Assembly: GCF_037042905.1 (NCBI RefSeq)
Contig: NC_087250.1
Location: forward strand, 5,272,001 to 5,336,000
DNA from: Lytechinus pictus
Lineage: Eukaryota
Direction: 5' to 3'
Length of the DNA stretch: 64,000 nucleotides
Below are positions 45,705-57,235 of the stretch, one piece after another; the stretch's first letter is position 1; every line of letters starts with the position of its first letter. The notes beneath the pieces were generated by a model, which was given only the letters and a program-made list of their open reading frames with translations, had not been told where the DNA came from and ran no database searches. Both the position numbers and the translations under genes were made by a program.

Positions 45705-47064
45705 GGGGAAGGTTCGAGGAAAGTGTGACAAACTTTACCTGTAAAACTCTTTTTTTTTATTCAAATGACAACCCCAGCAAAAAATTGACTTGGATAAGAG
45801 AAAAACCGAAACAGTTTTATGCACATCCAGGTCAGTATGCAAATTAAGGGACTGATGACATTATTCACTCGCCATTTATTTGGGGTTTTATTATAAGAAA
45901 AATGTGAACCATTCAAAATTTACCTGAGAAAATTGTCCGAAACAAAGATTAATTACTCCCTGAAAATGTTGAATTACCAATGCTTTACCATTTCGTGGTT
46001 CAGTCAACTTTGTACATTGTCGAAGCTGTAAAAATGAAATAACAGAACACACAAAAAAGTAAGTGAGGGACATCATCGACTTTCTCATTTACATATTACT
46101 CGGTTGTGCAAAGGCTACAATAACCTTTTTTATGAATATATTAATTCCAATCAACATGTTTCTGAGCTGGACGTGACCTTTAAATATGCAGTGAAAGTAA
46201 TTGGTAATATGGGAAATAGATAAGATTGGAAGGTGTAGCGAATATCAAAGTTCCCCATAAATCATGTATATGGAACTCTGTACTAGTGTCTATAAAATGA
46301 TGCTCGGCTTTTTACTCATTTTAGGTAAACGTTCAATTCATTTTATCAGAATACTTGAAGTAAAATTTTGAGCCAATGTTTCAGTTTACAATGAAGTCTG
46401 TGGTGTACAGATGGGAAGCTTGGGGCGCTCCCACCTCCACCCCCTTCAAACTTTTAAAGACCAAGGAAAAAGAGAAAAAGAGGAAGAGAAGGTAAAATAT
46501 AATATTATTTTCTGAATATTGAATAAAAAATCAACCACAAATTTTGATTTTTGTAATAAGAAAATGTCAAAGTTTTTGCTCGTTCGGTTCACTCGATCGC
46601 AACTTTTTTTTTTATAACGGAACTCCGTATCTGGGCCGTCGTAAATTTTTACCATCGAATTAGTCATCACCATTATCTCCACCATCACCATCATCATCTC
46701 CATGGCCTTTATTTTTAATATTGTTTCCATTATACTAATCCCGATCAGTACCATCTTAATCTGGTGTTGGTCTAGCAGAGAATAAACTACATTAACTCTT
46801 GGGCGTTAATCTTTATTATTCAAATGATTGGATATTACCATTCTGCTTTTTCTCATCATGTTTCAATCTGGGGTTCTTCAAGTAATCTGCTTATAATGAT
46901 AATCCTTCTGTAAATTTTGAAAGTTATAATAATTTGGTAGTTGATCATTTTCTTTCGGAATGATTATTACAGTTTAGGGGGTATGATACATAATTCCTTT
47001 GAAAATGCAAATAAACTCACAATGGACAGCTGAGACTCTTTTGTCGAAAGTTGGTAGACCGGGA

Positions 47065-50000
47065 CGCGAATACCTTTTCCGTACATGGAAACGCTATGGT
47101 ACATGAATTATTCATAAGTTGAGCTAAAAAAACTGAAGTGCGCAGGCGCATGGACTTCGCCGATAGTTCTATAGCTTCATCAATTTGTACATGAACGAAT
47201 GGACGAGCACACTCTTGTACATAAATGAATGGTAATGGTCTCCATCCCAATCTCCCCGCTTTCTGAAGTTTCGAATTCTCTCTTAGCACACTCTCTCTGC
47301 TTTAAGAATCATGAATGAATTGACTAATGAATAATGTTCGCGCACCCCCCCCCCATCTAAATATTTGTTCCTTACTGAACATGTCAGCCAAGTTCCCCCC
47401 CCCCCCTCTCTCTCTCCCCTCTCTCAATTGATTAGGCCTAGAAGTTTTAAAAATACATTGATGCCTATACCTTTGGAAATAAAAAAATAATGTTGAATTT
47501 AAACGTTGATCAGGATTCATGAAGACTTGAAATCGCAAGAGTTTCAAGCTAGTAATTGAGTGATTTATGATTTAGTTAAACTTCCCCCCAACCACGTCAC
47601 ATTTCAATGTCGAATATTCCTTGCAGACACATATAAATCATTGTGTGGGTGTGGGGGGGGGGGTACTTGACCGAGGACACTTAATAGTTATTTTTTTTAC
47701 AAAATCATAGTATACTGTATAACGAGTACATTAAGGGAATGATTGTCCGAATGGTGCTGTATACAGAAATATGTCTACACTCTAAAAATAGTTTGGCAAA
47801 AATTTCCATCTTTTAACCAACCCTGCATGGGCAACATACTGTCTACACAACTATTGGTTAAAATCTGTCCAAATTGGGTAATAAATTTGTTCAGTTGGAT
47901 ATAATAATTGCCCAGAATATATATTTTCTATTACCAAACACAGTGGACAGTATGTTGCCCAACAGTGACATTTTAAGTGTGTATGGTGAGAGAGGAAAGA
48001 CAAAACATGAGCTAGACAGAAGAGACAAAACTGCTAGGGCGTTAACTCAGAACCTATCAGTTAACGAAACTTGATAATCTGTCTTATTTCGTCTATGCCT
48101 GTAGAAATTATGTAATTTGTTGGACCAAAACAGGAATAAAAAACAATCAGAATTTATTCACTTATTTTTTTATTCTTTTAAATATCTTTATACAGGATAA
48201 CAAGCTCAAAATGACTGTTTTTCAGCATGGTCCTGTTAACATGAAATAACAATATATACATGATTTGTATAAATTATTGCAAAACCATCCATTACACAAA
48301 TTTAATGCTTAAGATATTGCATACAAAAATTTCAGAGCTCTCCAATAAATAATGCGAGTGCAAAGCGCTAGCTTAAAAACATCCTGATGTGATAACTTGA
48401 CGTTATTCAAGCAATGCACTTTCTTGTAAATGCAAGCAGGATTCGTATATTTTGCTTAAACAAATAATGAAAACTCGAATCTCTAGAAGAAGAATTTGTG
48501 CAAATCTACTTGAAAACTGGATTTTAAAGTCCCATGTTATCCTATTGAGCGCATTTATTCATCTCAATCGACAGCCACTGCGAGCAAAAAGCGCGAGGAA
48601 ATCTTGAATTTACATAATGACCTGAAAGATTTTTGGGGAGCTAACAGTGGCATGATGACAACATTTCAATATTTGAAGGGTAAAAATGTTGCTTTGGAGC
48701 ACTTTATAGCTTGAGTAGGATGTTTATGATAGCATTCACTTCATTTCTTTCTTCAGTTTTCAAAATTTTATGGGGGAGGGGCAATGATCTTGACTGGGGG
48801 GGGGGGGGGGTGGGCATTTGCCCCCCCCCCCCCCTGATGCCGCCACTGATTGTTGTTCTACTAATAAAGTGGTTGGTTATATCCAAGAGCTATGCCAAAA
48901 TCACCAAAGTTTAACAACAGGGACAGATATAGCCTGCCCTTTCTAAAGGATATACACCTAGTAAGCCTACTTTAAAGAACCAAAACAAAATTAACTTTAA
49001 AACATCCCCCCAAAAAAAATCACATCGGCTTTACAGTGGGTCTATTATGATGGACCTTTTTCATGTTACGCAATATAATAATGTCCAATATATTTTTAAT
49101 CGTAAAAAGTCGCAAGTTCATTATCATTTTGGGGGTAACTATTCAGAAAACTTTTAATTCCTCACTCGGTCTTTGACAAAAAGTAACTTTACACTTTTCA
49201 TCATTTTTAATATCGATATGGTCAGATGATGATTGCAAGCCTTGCCTTTTTTTAAGGATTATTAAATCTTCATGAATTTTATCTGGCAAATAGCTCTGAA
49301 ATTTTTGTATGCAATATCTTAAGCATTCGATTTGTGTAATGGATGGTTTTGCAATAATTTATACACATTATGTATATATTGTTATTTCATGTTAACAGGA
49401 CCATGCTGAAAAAGTCATTTTGAGCTTGTTGTCCTGTATAAAGATATTTAAAAAATAAAAATAAATGAATAAACTCTGATTGTTTTTTATTCTTATTTTG
49501 GTCCAAGAAATTACATAATTTCTACAGGCATAGACGAAATAAGACAGATTATCAAGTTTCATTAACTGATAGGTTCTAAGTTAACGCCCTAGCAATTTTG
49601 TCTCTCCTGTCTAGCTCATGTTTTGTCTTTCCTCTCTCATCATACACACTTAAACTGTTGTGCAACATAATAAACTGTCCACTGTGTTGGGTAATGAAAA
49701 ATATATATTCTGGGCAATTATTATATCCAACTGAACAAATTTATTACCCAATTTGGACAGATTTTAACCAATAGTTGTGTGGACAGTATGTTGCCCATGC
49801 AGGGTTGGTTAAAAGATGGAAATTTTTGCCAAACTATTTTTAGAGTGTAGACATATTTCTGTATACAGCACCATTCGGACAATCATTCCCTTAATGTACT
49901 CGTTTTACAGTATACTATGATTTTGTAAAAAAATAACTATTAAGTGACCTCGGTCAACCCCCCCCCCCACACACACACACAATGATTTATATGTGTCTGC

Positions 50001-50707
50001 AAGGAATATTCGACATTGAAATGTGACGTGGGGGTTGGGGGAAAGTATAACTAAATCATAAATCACTCAATTACTAGCTTGGAGCTCTTGCGATTTCAAG
50101 TCTTCATGAATCCTGATCAACATTTAAATTCAACATTATTTTTCTATTTCCAAAGGTATAGGCATCAATGCATTTCTAAAACTTATAGGCCCATAGGCGG
50201 CGGAGCAGAGGATTATCTTTTGTGTTTGGGGGGGGGGGGGGGACGCAACAATAGCCGCCCCCCCCCCCCCCCAAACACAAAAGATAATCCTCTGCTCCGC
50301 CGCCAATGTATAGGACTAATCAATGGAGAGAGGGGAGAGAGAGAGGGGGGGAACTTGACTGACATGTTCAGTAAGGAACAGAGATTTAGATGGGGGGGGG
50401 GGGGGTGCGCGAACATTATGCGAGTCAATTCATTCATGATTCATAAAGCAGAGAGAGTGTGCTAAGAGAGAGGAAGGGAGAGAGATTGCAAGAGAGAGGG
50501 GAAGAGAGAATCGAAACTTCAGAAAGCGGGGAGATTGGGATGGAGACCATTACAAGAGTGTGCTCGTCCATTCGTTCATGTACAAATTGATGAAGCTATA
50601 TAACTATCGGCGAAGTCCATGCGCCTGCGCACTTCAGTTTTTTAGCTCAACTTATGATGAATAATTCATGTTCTATAGCGTTTCCATGTACGGAAAAAAT
50701 ATTCGCG
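47065..50707. mobile_element. Foldback element 1: inverted arms of about 1.3 kb (47065-48339 / 49291-50707) around a spacer of about 0.95 kb
   Basis: The arms are reverse complements with high identity and are bounded by CGCG on both sides. Confidence 0.9.
50192..50308. mobile_element. Hairpin hAT-like MITE in the right arm only
   Basis: Near-perfect palindrome, TSD TATAGGCC/TATAGGAC, empty site in the left arm at about 47435. Confidence 0.88.
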
Positions 50708-50730
50708 ACCGGTGAGTGCAGCTCGCAGGA

Positions 50731-50917
50731 CGCGAAATTATTTTTCCCACCGAGTTCTGGACCAACATATGAATATTCATGACTTGCGTCTTCGGATTAA
50801 GAGTACGCATGACTTTGCCTCGACCAGTGCCGGTCGTAAGCATTCACGTTCAGTTGCTCAGAATGAATTAGCATCGTCAAATTACCGGTACCATTACATA
50901 GGCCTTATAGGCTTAGA

Positions 50918-50954
<37 letters not shown>

Positions 50955-53900
50955 TATTCTTAAACACTTATCAAACTAGCTGCCATTAATGGCAAGACTT
51001 GTGCTCGGCTAGGGCTAGCTTGGGCTAGCGCATTAACTTTACCTCAAATATGGACCTGTCTAATGCCTGTTAATACAAATAGTAATAGCCGACTAATGCC
51101 ATGGTTAACTTCGAACCGGTAAATTCCGAACTTTACGTTTGCTTTTTATTTACCATGGTTTAATATGTCTAGTCCGTATACAGAACCAGTCCTAGATCTA
51201 AAAAAATATCTTAGTTCTAGTCTAGTCTCTAGATCTAGACTCTGATCTACGCTGGATCAGCATGGAACAATTAGTGTACCAAGGCGGGGGGGGGGGGGGG
51301 GGCAGACTGCCACCTGATGATTTACAATTGATCTAGGGGACGTGCCCCTCCCCTTTAGAAGCCAAATTAATAATTTGTAATGTCAAAATGCAACAAAAAG
51401 AGACTTATGTCCCCTCTTTTGAACGTGAAGATCTTTTCTTTTTTTTGCTTGTCAATTTTTTTTCAGCTAAGAAATCCTTAATTTGGGGTGAAGACGGGGA
51501 TCAAGATCACTGACGTTAGTTTGTGCCTGACGTTAGAATACGTTCCATGCACTGAAGTGGCGTAGCTAGGATTTTTCTTCCTGGGGGGGGGGGGGGGGCA
51601 CTGGGGGGTCCTTGCTTTTTCAGCGGTGGGGGCACCGGCCATTTATTCCGGTGTGTGTGTATGTGTCACAAAAGCGGATCGGACTTTCGCCAATAGGGGA
51701 CGGGCCTGAAATTATCTTCACCTATATTTTCCTCGATCAGTCACTTCTTAGTTTTATTCTTATAAAACAACATAAACATGAAATAATCTCATAAGCCTTA
51801 TAAAAAGTGTGAGCGCGAAGCGCGAGCAATTTCTTTTTAAAAATATTATGGGCAATGGTATGTGTGATCCTGAACAAGATTCGTATGTAACTAGATGGTT
51901 ACTGCAAACGCCAAGCACGAGCAGAAATTTGTATTAACTGTTCTAGCATTATCGAAAAGGGACCTGTTAAGGACAGCTGTGGTATACAGTTACCCACGAA
52001 GGCAGTATATATTTCAATAATGCGATTGCGAAGCGCGAGCAATTTTTGACATTCCGACCTAAAAAAATTATAATTCTAAGCACTTTTTGTATTAATAAAT
52101 GGGATAGGTATGTACCTAAACAATTGATGCGAGCGCGAAGCGCGAGAGGAAGAAAATTGAGATTTTAGACCTAAAAGCAGGACACTCTATTCATTTTTGT
52201 AATCATAAATAGGATATAGTTAATTGGGTATCATTAATAATGCGATCGTGAAGCGTGAGCAGACAATTATTGATATTCTGATGTGAAACTGAATAATTCA
52301 AGTACATTTTAAATAAAGAACATGCAGGCTATCGCGCATGTTTTAGATTTAGACCTAGAATCTGGGCATTCTGAATACATTTGTTTAATGGAACATTATG
52401 GAATACACGTAGAAATTATGAACTTGGCAAATCAAACAATGTGACCACGCAGCGTGAGCTTAAAATGCTGATATGTAGACCATAAAACGGACATTTTACA
52501 GAGCAATTAAATTTGTAAATGAAAAAAAAAATAATGAAAGCTCGAACGAAGTCCGAGCTAAAATATGTTTTGTATATTGACTTCAAAACTTGCTCCATAT
52601 CAGCCTATTAAGCAAGATATGAATCTCATCGAACAGGCAATTCTGGCGCGAAGCGCAAGCAAAAATTTTATATAGTAACATGAAATATTTTTTTTTCAAG
52701 TCTCCCCCTCACATTATTTCATTCACTTAGCTTTTCCTATAGAAAGAGGGGGACAAATTTTGTTCACTCGCTCGCTTCAATCACTTTCTTCTTTTTTTGA
52801 CAGAAATTTTGCTCTATATGCCATGCTTGGCCCCTCAAAGTTTCTTGCTCATCATGCCATTGACATAACCCATTTGGATATGACAAAATTGAAGAATGTG
52901 CTCAAGTTTACCAAATCTTTTCAGAATATCATTAAGACTTAAAACATATTTGTTGGCCAAAGAAAATAATACAAGGAAAATCCTAATGGAATAGAAATCA
53001 ACCTTGTTATCGTTCTTTAGAGTTAGCTATGTTTAAAGTATGAAAATTGTTGTCAAAATTGCAGTCAGATGTCAAATTTATTCTTGTCATCAAAGCACTA
53101 TCATCTTGATCATGATCATTATTATTTACTGTCATTATCATCATTAGTCATGATTACAACACATTACCAATACATAATGCTATTTTTCATAACTGAGGTA
53201 TTCTTTGTTTGAAAATTCTTAATAATGGTGACAATAACAATTGATGACACTGCTAGAACACTTATACTGCTGCTGCTAATGTTACTGGTGACTGGTAGTA
53301 TTGACTATTAGTGTCATTAAATATAAAAAAAACAATTGAAACATTTATAATTACTTATTAAAAAAAAAAGTACAAAATATAAAATGCCTTGAAAAGGCCT
53401 TGAAAATGCCTTGAAAATGCCTTGAATTTTCAAGGCCAATGCTTTGAAAAAGTAGGCCTTAAGGCCGGCTCGGTGTAAAAATGGCAGAGGTAATAATGGC
53501 AGAGGTAAAAATGGCAGAGGTAAAAATGGCAGAGGTAAAAATGGCAGAGGTAAAAATGGCAGATGTAAAAATGGCAGAGGTAATAATGGAAGGGGTAAAA
53601 TGAAAATGGCAGGGGTAATAATGGCAGAGGTAAAAATGACAGAGGTAAATATGGCAGAGGTAAAAATGGCAGAGGTAAAAATGGCAGAGGTAAAATTGGC
53701 AGAGGTAATAATGGCAGAGGTAATATTGGCAGAGGTAAAATGGCAGGGGTTATAATGGGAGAGGTAAAAATGACAGCTCTAGGTAAAATATGGCCAGTCT
53801 TAAACCCCCATGCAATAAATAGCCCCCGCATGTACATACATTAAATAAGAAGTGCATGTCACGGTTAGGCATTTCATCATCATTATGTCTCCATCGGCCT

Positions 53901-55308
53901 AACAATGCTATTTACGAATACGTTGAAAGTGTACCGTGAACACTTTTTAAAAAGAAATCAAACGACAGATATTTTTTCATTCAATTTATCAGGAGCAAAA
54001 TGAAACTGCACTATTCTCATTTATCATTTGATAACATTCCTTTTTGTCTGGCTGGTTTTTTTTATATCTAAAGTTTTGCCAGGTTTACCGATGAAAAATG
54101 AGGAAGAGTAGACATAAGAGAAGTGGGGAGACATAGAGGGTTAGGGGCGGGGAAAAACATAGAGAACATAGCGGGGAAAGCTTAGACGTTGAAATTATCA
54201 CGAATGATTGTGGTTAAATATTATGTCCTTATTTGTAATGTCGTCTGTACTATTCTTTTTAAATAATTGAATGAAAATAAGCATGCGTTCCCAGGCTTGG
54301 CACTGAATATGTAACTGATTATGAAAATCAATAATAATCTTGTTTTGACTGGTAAACCAATTTGGGGTCGATCGAGGGAGACCGTCTGGTTCATATTCTT
54401 TGCATAAAAGAAGACCCTGAAACTTTACCACTGCATCCAATATGATATAAACGCCTTGATGGTCATAACCCTTGAAAGCGGAAGTACTGTTGGGTATTTT
54501 GTTCACCATAAGCAGTACCCTCTTGGTAATTAGCTTGGTATGCTAAAATGTAGATATTTGATATAAATCTCTGTTATTTTTCAAACAGAAGAAAAAACAT
54601 TGTTTATTATCTAATTGTTATTATTTTCATTGGAATTCTTTTTCTGACCTAAAAGAACTTCATTCAGTTTAAATATTTTTTTTGTGTCATTTCCCCCCTT
54701 AACCAAATCCACTTTCACTTTGGAGTGATAACTTTTTTTTCTCGGCTTTTTAACAAACCAGCACCCCATTTTTACTAACTTTTCAAAAGTAAGTGGTGCT
54801 CACTCAAGCGGAAATATTTTTCGACAATTATATCGTCATTTGCTTAAATGGATCTGTACCAATGTTAAAATGTGGAAAAATCTTCAGGATTTTACAAGCG
54901 GGGGCTTTTTGACAATTCATTGCATGGGGGTTTAAGACTGGCCATATTTTACCTAGAGCTGTCATGTTTACCTCTCCCATTATAACCCCTGCCATTTTAC
55001 TTCTGCTATTCTTATTTCTGCCATTATTACCTCTGCTATGTCTACCTCTGCCATTTTCACCTCTGCCATTTTTACCTCTGTCATTATTACCTATGCCATT
55101 TTTACCCCTGCCATTTTTACCTGGCATCTTAAGGCCAAGGCCAAGCATCAAGGCACTACAGCACTGATTAGTACTAGGCATTAGACAGGTCCAGATTTGA
55201 GGTTAAGTTAATGCGCTAGCCTAAGCGAGCACTAGCCTGAAGTGAATAGCCTAGCACATGTCTTGCCATTAATGGCAGCTAGTTTGATAAGTGTTTAAGA
55301 ATTGGATA

Positions 55309-55386
<78 letters not shown>

Positions 55387-55589
55387 TCTAAGCCTGTATA
55401 AAGGCCTATGTAAATATGCAAGGGTACCGGTAATTTGACGATGCTAATTCATTCTGAGCAACTGAACGTGAATGCTTACGACCGGCACTGGTCGAGGCAG
55501 TCCACGCGCATGCGTACTCTTAATCCGAAGACGCAAGTCATGAATATTCATATGTTGGTCCAGAACTCGGTGGGAAAAATAATTTCGCG
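50731..55589. mobile_element. Foldback element 2: inverted arms (about 50731-51070 / 55175-55589), related to element 1, with nested insertions
   Basis: The arms are reverse complements including an internal (TA)n, bounded by CGCG; TIR motifs are shared with element 1. Confidence 0.88.
53467..55128. mobile_element. Second 15-bp minisatellite foldback element with 8-9 bp TSD (C)TTAAGGCC
   Basis: Arms about 53467-53830 / 54900-55128, exact TSD, termini match 32077-33411 in the opposite orientation. Confidence 0.85.
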
Positions 55590-55625
55590 ACCGGCGAAGC
55601 ATCGGACTCTCTTGACTCTGGACAA

Positions 55626-57235
55626 CACTAGCGTAAATCCGTGTTGATGGGTGGGGGGGGGGGATGACTGAAATATTTTGGCATTTTTTTTTGCAATCAT
55701 GTTTTTAGATCATGGGGGTCACCAGCAAAATTTTTGAATCACTGAGTAAGCGCGCTCAGTTGCCAGTTATACTGACCCTAATAGAGACATTTTAAGGACA
55801 ATGTCATTAAACGGATATGTATCTCAATGATCAAATAATGCCAGCGCAAAGCGCGAGCTGATTTTTTTTTATATTCACACCTAAAAAGGGACATTATAAT
55901 CAAATTTGTGTAATCATGATAGGTACCTGTATCGCTAAGTTTTCGTATATTTTGACCCCAAACAGCGAGATTTTAAGAAATATATTTTAGGAATCCATTA
56001 AGAGTATGCACATCTCACCAAAGTCATCTAATGCGAGTGCCAAGCGCTTGCTGATTTTATTAGAATTACATCTGAACACATGAAACACTTTTTGTAGTCA
56101 TTCCAATCATGATTATCGTAAGCATCTCACTAATCAAATATTGCGAGCGCGAAGCGCGAGCTGAAAATTTATATGATTCAGACCTGAAGTGGGGCATTCT
56201 GATGTTTCTTTGTAGGAATTAACTAGGACCATACGTATTTCATAAACCAAATGATGCGAGCGCGAAGCGCGAGCTGAAATTTTTCGATATTCAGATCAGA
56301 AGAAGAGACATTTTAATGACTGATTTTAGGAATTCATGAAGAGCAGACATATCTCACCAATCCACTAATGCGAACGTAATCACGGACAAGAAATGTTTCA
56401 TATATATAAAACTTTCACATTTGGCAATCACTTTTTGAGTTATGAAAAAGAAGAATATGTCACTACATAAAACAATGATAACTCAAGTGCTAGGAAATAT
56501 ATTTGGTTTATATTGACTTGAAAACGGGAAGTTTTAGTACAGGATTATATATCTCGTTAAACAGACAATGCAAGCACCAGGAACAATAAAGACGTAGGCC
56601 CTGGGCAAATTAAGTTTCATAAAGTTATGATAAAAATGTTTCTTATGTAATGTAACATAACATAATTATAATATAATATAACATTATAAAAAAAAAAATT
56701 CCCTTTCCCACTACGTTTCTCTTCCTTTCTCCCCGTTTTTTTTTTGGTCAGACGATTTGGGGGGACATGCCCCCCATCCCCCCCCCCCCGTAGTTACGCA
56801 ACTGTATGTCCATATGGCAAATACCTCTCCAATGTTATTATCTTTTTTACCCCATGATGGTTTAATGGTTTTATTAAAGATTATTTTTAAAATTTTTGAC
56901 ATTCCATCTCAATACCTTCCCAAAGACCCCAACATTGATGAATTGGATGAACGGGGGTTTCTCTTCAATGTTATAATAAGGACATAAGTATATTTCGTTT
57001 GAAAATGGTGAACTGGCTCTTTATTTGCATTTTATGATTCAATAATATTGTTTTATTTGTTAAGCGGTATTTCAGGAAGAATCTTCACCAATAAAACAAT
57101 ATTATCTCTTGTGATTTTTTTCATTTCTTTCGTAAAAAGTGGGGGGATGTTTGTATAGGCCATCCCCCTCCTCGAAAAGTGGGGGGGGGGGGTATATCCC
57201 CCCATCCCCACCCCCCCCCCGGATTTACGCCAGTG
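55626..57235. mobile_element. hAT-like non-autonomous element with 8-bp TSD CTGGACAA, containing a nested GCGCGAAGCGCG-type element
   Basis: TIR CACTAGCGTAAATCCG / CGGATTTACGCCAGTG, exact TSD. Confidence 0.87.

Follow-up and report, generated by a model that had tools for sequence, protein, structure and literature searches.

Within a 64,000-nucleotide stretch of the genome of the sea urchin Lytechinus pictus (assembly GCF_037042905.1, contig NC_087250.1, positions 5,272,001 to 5,336,000 of the forward strand; hereafter, the window, numbered from its first letter), two long elements with inverted ends, E1 and E2, lie almost end to end, and GGACGCG and CGCGACCGG flank both of them. This arrangement raises the question of what kind of elements these are, which enzyme mobilizes them, and why both carry the same junctions. 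A sequence-only reading of the window proposed two occupied copies of a fixed 12-bp target, GGACGCGACCGG, split between CG and CG, with either CGCG as a 4-bp target-site duplication (TSD) or no TSD, in a family that matched no superfamily with long terminal inverted repeats (TIRs) that could be named. The analysis presented here, for which the whole assembly was searched (812 Mb in 368 contigs), leads to a different answer. With a probability of about 0.85, E1 and E2 represent two sister non-autonomous families of Mutator-like elements (MULEs) of the foldback type, which make 9-bp TSDs, re-used one GC-rich target in the window, and are mobilized in trans by a transposase with MULE and SWIM domains.

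E1 and E2 families make 9-bp target-site duplications

Direct repeats of 9 bp stand directly outside the terminal GCG...CGC in paired copies, such as CGCCGGCCG, GGCCTGGAC, GGCCGGGCC, TGCCGGGTA, GTCCGGGAA, and CACCGGGCG. Automatic scoring of the E1-family pairs found TSDs matching at 9/9 positions in 5/14 and at 8/9 in 2/14; one more copy (L045), which has a mutated right terminus and lay outside the automatic scoring, matches at 9/9 by eye, and at L046, which falls in a poly-G run, the TSD is ambiguous. E2 pairs were made by hand from + and - ends within 13 kb of each other among 100 listed ends, and the resulting 25 pairs include 15 at 9/9, 1 at 8/9, 1 at 7/9, and 4 that match only with a small indel. 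When left and right flanks of the E1 family were deliberately mismatched as a control, 0/182 pairings reached 9 (mean, 4.55), and a GC-rich target bias was rejected on this ground as the source of the 9-bp repeats. Both families make 9-bp TSDs, and the mode of the TSD length is exactly 9 bp, not 8.

E1 and E2 both end in GCG...CGC, starting with GCGAA and carrying its inverted complement at the other end, and these terminal GCG/CGC triplets are conserved in the E1-type pairs, in the E2 ends, and in an alignment of the four window ends. The same alignment recovers common TIR motifs in one order in all four ends, namely, GCGAA, a T run followed by CC, ATGAAT(T)ATTCAT, and AGTRCGCAKGCG-CRTGGACT. 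The sequence-only reading had described the TIRs as diverged but related with motifs in a constant order, which this alignment bears out, and the long inverted arms that it reported for both elements are recovered by a self-comparison of the window. The junction strings that it quoted are present for E1 (GGA-CGCG-AATACC... from 47062 and ...TATT-CGCG-ACCGG at 50700-50712) and for E2 (GGA-CGCG-AAATTATTTT from 50728 and ...AAAATAATTT-CGCG-ACCGG at 55576-55594), and its view that E1 and E2 inserted separately and belong to related, non-autonomous families of TIR DNA transposons is supported.

The interpretation of the junctions changes. In CGCG, a single TSD base adjoins the terminal GCG (or CGC), and the 9-bp duplication lies outside the termini instead of being CGCG or lacking altogether. 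The 12-mer GGACGCGACCGG decomposes into the 3' end of a TSD (GGAC), the termini (GCG/CGC), and the 5' end of a TSD (GACCGG), and it is seen twice because one duplicated 9-mer flanks both elements. A fixed 12-bp target served by an unclassified DDE or Crypton-like enzyme would explain the shared flanks in the window and the near invariance of GCG beside the AT-rich terminus in other copies. It is contradicted by the distribution of the 12-mer, which has 0 occurrences in the 64-kb window at ≤1 mismatch, is missing from the uninterrupted paralogous sites, and differs from the flanks of 30 other E1-type ends, which have in common GCG adjoining the AT-rich terminus, with CCGG close by. A search of the window for the left-junction 12-mer returned just the two known sites and one chance-level match. 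The perfect 9-bp repeats outside GCG...CGC in 15/25 and 5/14 pairs also contradict such a target, GGA and ACCGG prove to be TSD sequence and not a fixed host motif, CGCG is accounted for by terminus plus TSD base, and the presence of a TSD is incompatible with a Crypton mechanism. A fixed 12-bp target has, in our estimation, next to no chance of being correct. What stands of the proposed target specificity is a strong sequence bias, the 12-bp motif itself being discarded as the target; similarly, of the two enzymes suggested, a DDE transposase is likely, and a Crypton-like tyrosine recombinase is contradicted by the TSDs.

One target used twice and the preference for CCSGG

The left flank of E1 belongs to a miniature inverted-repeat transposable element (MITE), as window positions 46992-47059 match many copies arranged as inverted arm pairs ~160 bp apart (1038 candidates). 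In an alignment, eight paralogous MITE copies run uninterrupted through ...GGACCGGGACAGCATCGG..., and the right flank of the window resumes at AGCATCGG. The uninterrupted paralogues read ...GTTGGT(A/G)GACCGGGACAGCATCGG... (the same stretch is also given as ...GTCGAAAGTTGGTGGACCGGGACAGCATCGGAATCTCTTGACTCTGGACAAC...), and the MITE copy at L079 is an exact match to GTTGGTAGACCGGGACAGCATCGG at the empty site. The empty paralogous site is GACCGGGAC-AGCATC and lacks a CGCG core, and the window order is GTTGGTA-GACCGGGAC-[E1]-GACCGG+TGAGTGCAGCTCGCAG+GAC-[E2]-GACCGGCGA-AGCATCGGACTCTCTTGACTCTGGACAAC (Table 1). On the right-hand side, matches to another family begin at query position 25-29. The 9-mer is single in the empty paralogues and present three times in the window, and therefore both elements used one target. 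The uninterrupted MITE paralogues show that what had been taken for two occupied 12-bp motifs is a single original 9-bp target, T = GACCGGGAC, which now has the form T[E1]T'[E2]T''.

Table 1. Features of the E1/E2 locus (window coordinates)
Feature	Position	Strand	Remarks
E1, Mutator-like foldback element, non-autonomous	47066..50706	+	3641 bp; termini GCGAATACC...AATATTCGC
E2, Mutator-like element, non-autonomous	50732..55588	+	4857 bp; termini GCGAAATTATTTTTCCC...GGGAAAAATAATTTCGC
Second-level foldback within E2	53475..55122	.	15-bp tandem array and inverted partner
Host MITE left arm	46993..47056	+	MITE ~225 bp in full copies, TIRs ~68 bp; E1/E2 inserted here
TSD copy T1, GACCGGGAC	47057..47065	+	Identical to MITE at uninterrupted paralogous site
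TSD copy T2, interrupted	50707..50731	+	GACCGG + 16-bp filler + GAC
Filler TGAGTGCAGCTCGCAG	50713-50728	+	16 bp; splits T2
TSD copy T3, GACCGGCGA	55589..55597	+	GAC of T1 replaced by CGA at positions 7-9
Host MITE continuation AGCATCGGACTCTCTTGACTCTGGACAAC	55598..55627	+	Alignment with MITE paralogues; unrelated high-copy repeat follows

The filler in the middle TSD copy has no second copy in the window (≤3 mismatches, bar one chance-like match) or in 82 genomic loci. Such a split is what end-joining would leave, and the MITE 9-mer appears to be a recurrent target, making independent insertions on two haplotypes plausible. The tandem could thus have arisen from hotspot insertions on two haplotypes, or from an aberrant two-element transposition, joined by recombination or by end-joining with filler. 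Against this stands what simple re-use of a target predicts, an uninterrupted 9-nt spacer: two family members are split by exactly one 9-nt spacer at 4 other loci, versus 1 for a reversed control pattern, and further tandem cases are L008, with a 10-nt spacer, and the window itself. We consider such a joining event unlikely and retain re-use of a duplicated target as the preferred explanation. The first insertion would have duplicated T, and the second element would have entered one of the copies, presumably in this order, to give T[E1]T[E2]T; the middle copy may later have gained the 16-bp filler or may have formed with it, and the right copy carries a three-base change. Four of eight listed sequencing runs (word shares, 0.05-0.09) yielded repeat-dominated short contigs of 90-99% likeness, which carry no joint at 47065/47066, 50706/50732, or 55588/55589 and are uninformative on empty or single-element alleles.

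Irregular TSD copies were observed elsewhere as well. At L044 and L047, the right TSD copies contain 3-4-bp tandem duplications just past CCGG (ATCCGG+CGG+GCC and GGCCGG+TCGG+TGA), exactly where the middle TSD copy of the window has its 16-bp filler. The pair C1:19786759/19789281 has an imperfect TSD, GTACCGGAC versus GTACCGCGA, with ...GGAC on the left and ...GCGA on the right at the same positions, and the left and right copies of the window pair show the identical three-base change independently of that case. An identical three-base change in two independent TSDs suggests a repair or junction process and not random mutation.

The flanks reveal that the target is strongly selected. In 44 distinct E1-type flanks, the GC content of the 9-mer is 82%, and CCGG is contained in 31/44, with C at position 4 in 37/44, C/G at position 5 in 38/44, G at position 6 in 42/44, and G at position 7 in 34/44, giving the preferred consensus NNCCSGGNN with a palindromic CCSGG core, although part of the symmetry of the logo is built in because both TSD flanks were pooled in terminus-ward orientation. 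CCGG was also counted by hand within the 9-mer of 68/100 listed E2 flanks. The window background is 37.1% GC with 88 CCGG in 64 kb, a density from which a random 9-mer is estimated to contain CCGG less than 1% of the time. The E1 and E2 families strongly prefer GC-rich, CCSGG-centred 9-mers. In addition, the pattern "MITE arm + GACCGGGAC + GCGAA" has 15 genome matches versus 0 for its reversed control, and insertion at this MITE position therefore seems to have recurred at other loci; 14/15 of the matches lie outside the window, 8 of these at ≤1 mismatch.

A more general idea, which we put forward tentatively and hold at slightly less than even odds, is that echinoderm MULE+SWIM transposases read the CCSGG core in a GC-rich 9-mer far more strictly than any characterized Mutator element, so that the identical 9-mers in a MITE of more than 1000 copies become recurrent landing pads and fresh TSDs are re-used, with head-to-tail pairs on one 9-mer. 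Should the preference reside in the protein itself and not reflect chromatin or methylation, this would be a natural sequence-directed eukaryotic cut-and-paste transposase. A biased transposase with numerous, young non-autonomous copies (identical 21-mers at hundreds of E2 ends) offers a possible model for the target-site selection of DDE enzymes.

Candidate transposase genes and classification

The genome contains 17 matches to PF10551 (MULE) and a small family of MULE paralogues with 44-63% identity, mostly with open reading frames (ORFs), ~7 of which look intact. Two MULE paralogues lie 7-10 kb from 2/76 E1-type ends, a co-location for which the chance expectation is estimated at ~0.01 (76 ends, ~7 genes, 812 Mb, within 10 kb). 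On contig C13, a terminus starting GCGAATATTTTGTCCGTACATGG... stands at 5786088 beside a CCCGG-centred 9-mer. The closest database protein is P0001, an 869-aa protein of Lytechinus pictus with 99% identity that is labelled uncharacterised; it maps as seven exons at C13:5786215-5795937, the first of the annotated exons beginning 127 bp in from the terminus. The end on C13 is of E1 type over ~95 bp and divergent beyond, a pattern that is usual when an autonomous element is compared with its non-autonomous derivatives. On contig C3, an E1-type terminus at 64497835 lies near the second MULE paralogue, which is oppositely oriented (TIR 3' of the gene) and is adjoined by an ORF resembling that of a long interspersed nuclear element (LINE). 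The LINE-like endonuclease/reverse-transcriptase ORF lies directly upstream of the MULE exon (L059:2416-3226, i.e., C3:64508801-64509611) and has a weak match to Exo_endo_phos_2, below the cut-off; it probably disrupts the C3 copy.

The MULE domain (PF10551, Pfam) was matched above the cut-off in the C13 ORF, the C3 ORF, and full-length P0001, and Transposase_mut (PF00872) in the C13 and C3 ORFs but not in full-length P0001. SWIM was above the cut-off in the C3 exon and in the homologues P0002 and P0004, whereas P0001 (16.0 bits) and P0012 (18.1 bits) fell below the 19.6-bit cut-off. The linked protein matches MULE/SWIM and not hAT families, and it has no N-terminal domain recognized by Pfam. 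An alignment of 14 homologues shows little or no variation at D364, D434, C454xxH457, W530, and E552, the residues to which passages of PMC5499845 draw attention in Muta1 and hAT-type enzymes. Other echinoderms, teleosts, a nemertean, arthropods, and a fungus have homologues with MULE, and in many cases SWIM, domains, and the TIR and TSD anatomy of an animal MULE+SWIM clade of echinoderms and teleosts is now available.

Two side observations concern the transposase genes themselves. The Diadema homologues P0002 and P0003 share ~80% identity with the C13 protein across 98% of the query; this likeness is high for a transposase across distant sea-urchin orders and could reflect purifying selection (domestication) or horizontal transfer. 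At C11:33152418-33157066, ~20 head-to-tail copies spaced 211 bp apart carry an 84-aa fragment of a MULE transposase (query aa 88-171) with one TAG in each unit, a transposase fragment amplified into a tandem array.

The combination of 9-bp TSDs and long TIRs indicates the Mutator superfamily, for which TSDs of 8-11 bp and long TIRs are described in passages of PMC6446971, and 9-bp TSDs with long TIRs also in passages of PMC5499845; Mutator/Foldback elements with 9-bp TSDs likewise exist (PMC3169594, in part). A TSD within the 8-11-bp range, long TIRs, and a MULE DDE domain with CxxH and a W before the E were all found here, and a family that had seemed impossible to name thus fits Mutator/MULE. 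Three other assignments were rejected: superfamilies with 4-bp TSDs (the empty site lacks CGCG, and GCG/CGC is the conserved terminus), the Crypton/tyrosine-recombinase class (the elements have 9-bp TSDs, and a CGCG core is lacking at the empty paralogous site), and the hAT superfamily (the TSD mode is 9 bp rather than 8, and the linked protein has no hAT family matches).

Several observations weigh against the MULE reading as a whole. No two-ended autonomous copy, with two TIRs, a TSD, and a gene, was found at the loci examined. The C13 gene has an E1-type end on one side, and no right TIR was found within 18 kb by a search with its own left end, by BLAST, or by a motif scan. The C3 copy, also with one E1-type end, has no inverted TIR partner among the scored matches, the LINE-like ORF interrupting it and its far side lying outside the sequence examined. 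No transposase is tied specifically to the E2 family. Furthermore, the TSD is absent from three E1 pairs (L041, L042, and L043) and 4/25 E2 pairs show no TSD match; the window TSD copies are themselves imperfect, T1 versus T2 requiring the 16-bp filler and T3 differing at 3/9 positions; and the 14 other MITE-arm loci are known from a 23-mer only, and some may be segmental duplicates. In the 1.5-kb flanks of the MULE loci, no E1/E2-like termini were found.

The missing two-ended copy would also suit a different superfamily whose TSDs are 8-9 bp long (for instance, hAT, Merlin, or P-like foldbacks including Galileo), with the MULE genes as coincidental neighbours, and foldback architecture arose in several superfamilies according to passages of PMC3169594. 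Such coincidence would have to explain two independent co-locations of E1 ends and MULE genes against a chance expectation of ~0.01, an annotated first exon of P0001 inside an E1-type TIR, and a TSD mode of exactly 9 bp and not 8, and we judge it very improbable. The MULE reading is therefore retained. A MULE+SWIM gene such as that on C13, which encodes 869 aa and looks catalytically intact, would supply the transposase in trans to E1 and E2, as its association with an E1-type end suggests, and the conserved subterminal motifs are probable transposase-binding sites. By analogy with Muta1 (PMC5499845, in part), excision may proceed via hairpins on the flanking DNA and integration by 3'-OH attack, here presumably at 9-bp staggered cuts centred on CCSGG.

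We rate the family as an addition to the known Mutator/MULE superfamily that is unusually selective about its target. Literature searches turned up neither an account of a MULE family in echinoderms nor one of a CCSGG target, and prior cataloguing in Repbase or Dfam is possible. An apparently unclassifiable, sequence-specific element has become an ordinary Mutator-like family with corrected boundaries, TSD, and target. The remaining interest lies in the strength of the target bias (9-mers of 82% GC in surroundings of 37% GC), the apparently repeated insertions at one MITE position, and the re-use of a duplicated target. A bias of this strength is unusual for MULEs, whose best-studied members have a weak consensus or none in the passages of PMC2774946 and PMC3169594 drawn on here.

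Architecture of E1 and E2 and comparison with known systems

Self-comparison of the window places the inverted arms of E1 at ~47066-48339 and ~49292-50706, with 93-99% complementarity and a loop of ~950 bp. The arms (~1.3 kb) make up ~74% of the element, which gives E1 a foldback (FB-type) architecture, and their sequence is unique, without tandem subrepeats. In the assembly, 76 ends match the E1 terminus exactly or almost exactly (44+/32-; control, 0). An ORF search of both E1 and E2 found zero ORFs of ≥100 aa resembling an enzyme or transposase, and zero ORFs of interest of ≥120-150 aa were found when a transposase was sought in long E1-type copies (6-10 kb), which are E1 shells carrying nested insertions. 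A palindromic mini-element of ~110 bp with poly-G/poly-C runs (ggcggcggagcagagg...ccgccgcc) is nested at 50196-50305, in the right arm of E1 only, and the E1-type insertion at L046 sits in the poly-G run of another copy of this mini-element. The intervals G000:C22:93390-123876 and G000:C28:214702-231718 have the same E1-type ends and near-identical flanks at spacings of 30 kb and 17 kb; the two contigs are probably allelic or duplicated assemblies of a single locus that differ structurally.

E2 has TIRs of ~280-340 bp (~50732-51011 and ~55247-55588). Its terminus is present at 648 genome ends when searched with a 26-mer and at 740 with a 21-mer at ≤1 mismatch; the ends were collected genome-wide with a 35-place pattern, and 100 of the 740 were listed. 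The second-level foldback inside E2 consists of a 15-bp unit, GTAAAAATGGCAGAG, in ~20 copies at 53475-53776 and an inverted partner of ~11 copies at 54959-55122. These inverted arrays are internal, not terminal, and nested high-copy repeats are also present. Very high-copy short repeats containing GCGAAGCGCGAGC occupy the E2 interior (51600-52700) and the right flank (55840-56200), where the summed contig depth is 10-1000x that of neighbouring bins in 4/4 sequencing runs compared. The TIRs of the TU foldback elements of sea urchins reportedly contain 15-bp tandem repeats, which E2 has internally and which may point to a relationship between the two.

The E1 and E2 families resemble MuDR/Mu of maize and Muta1 of Aedes aegypti in their 9-bp TSDs and long TIRs (PMC6446971, PMC5499845, and PMC2774946, each in part). 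The candidate transposase has, as do MULEs, the MULE DDE domain with CxxH past the second D and W before the E (passages of PMC5499845), together with a SWIM zinc finger that exceeds its cut-off in the C3 exon and in some homologues, though not in P0001. Also shared are non-autonomous copies that have only their termini in common with a gene-bearing copy and, in the accounts drawn on, a transcript start in the TIR. Maize Mu has a weak consensus, SW::SWNNNNNWS::WS, with an unspecified centre, as given in a passage of PMC2774946, whereas the targets here have a strong CCSGG centre and are 82% GC. In the account of Muta1 drawn on here, the transposase has a FLYWCH N-terminus and the element has 12-bp subterminal repeats; P0001 has a SWIM-type region instead.

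Long-TIR transposons of sea urchins have been known as foldback TU elements since Liebermann et al. 1983 (as cited in a passage of PMC4079207). Among foldback-like members of the superfamily, Tm1 of root-knot nematodes, Tetris of Drosophila virilis, and FARE of Arabidopsis are similar in their long composite TIRs, their 8-10-bp (mostly 9-bp) TSDs, and their many non-coding copies with few or no transposase-bearing ones (PMC3169594 and PMC4079207, in part). In contrast to these three, the E1 arms lack tandem subrepeats, and the E2 arrays are internal rather than terminal. Tm1 also has TSDs in 45/53 copies with "no clear consensus" and a Phantom-type FLYWCH transposase, according to passages of PMC3169594, unlike the E1 and E2 families. 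MuTAnT of Medicago truncatula, as described in passages of PMC4486113, is likewise a MULE family: its foldback TIRs are modular, its TSDs are 9 nt long, and it markedly prefers certain insertion sites; however, it targets (TA)n microsatellites in AT-rich DNA, whereas E1 and E2 insert into GC-rich CCSGG 9-mers in an AT-rich genome.

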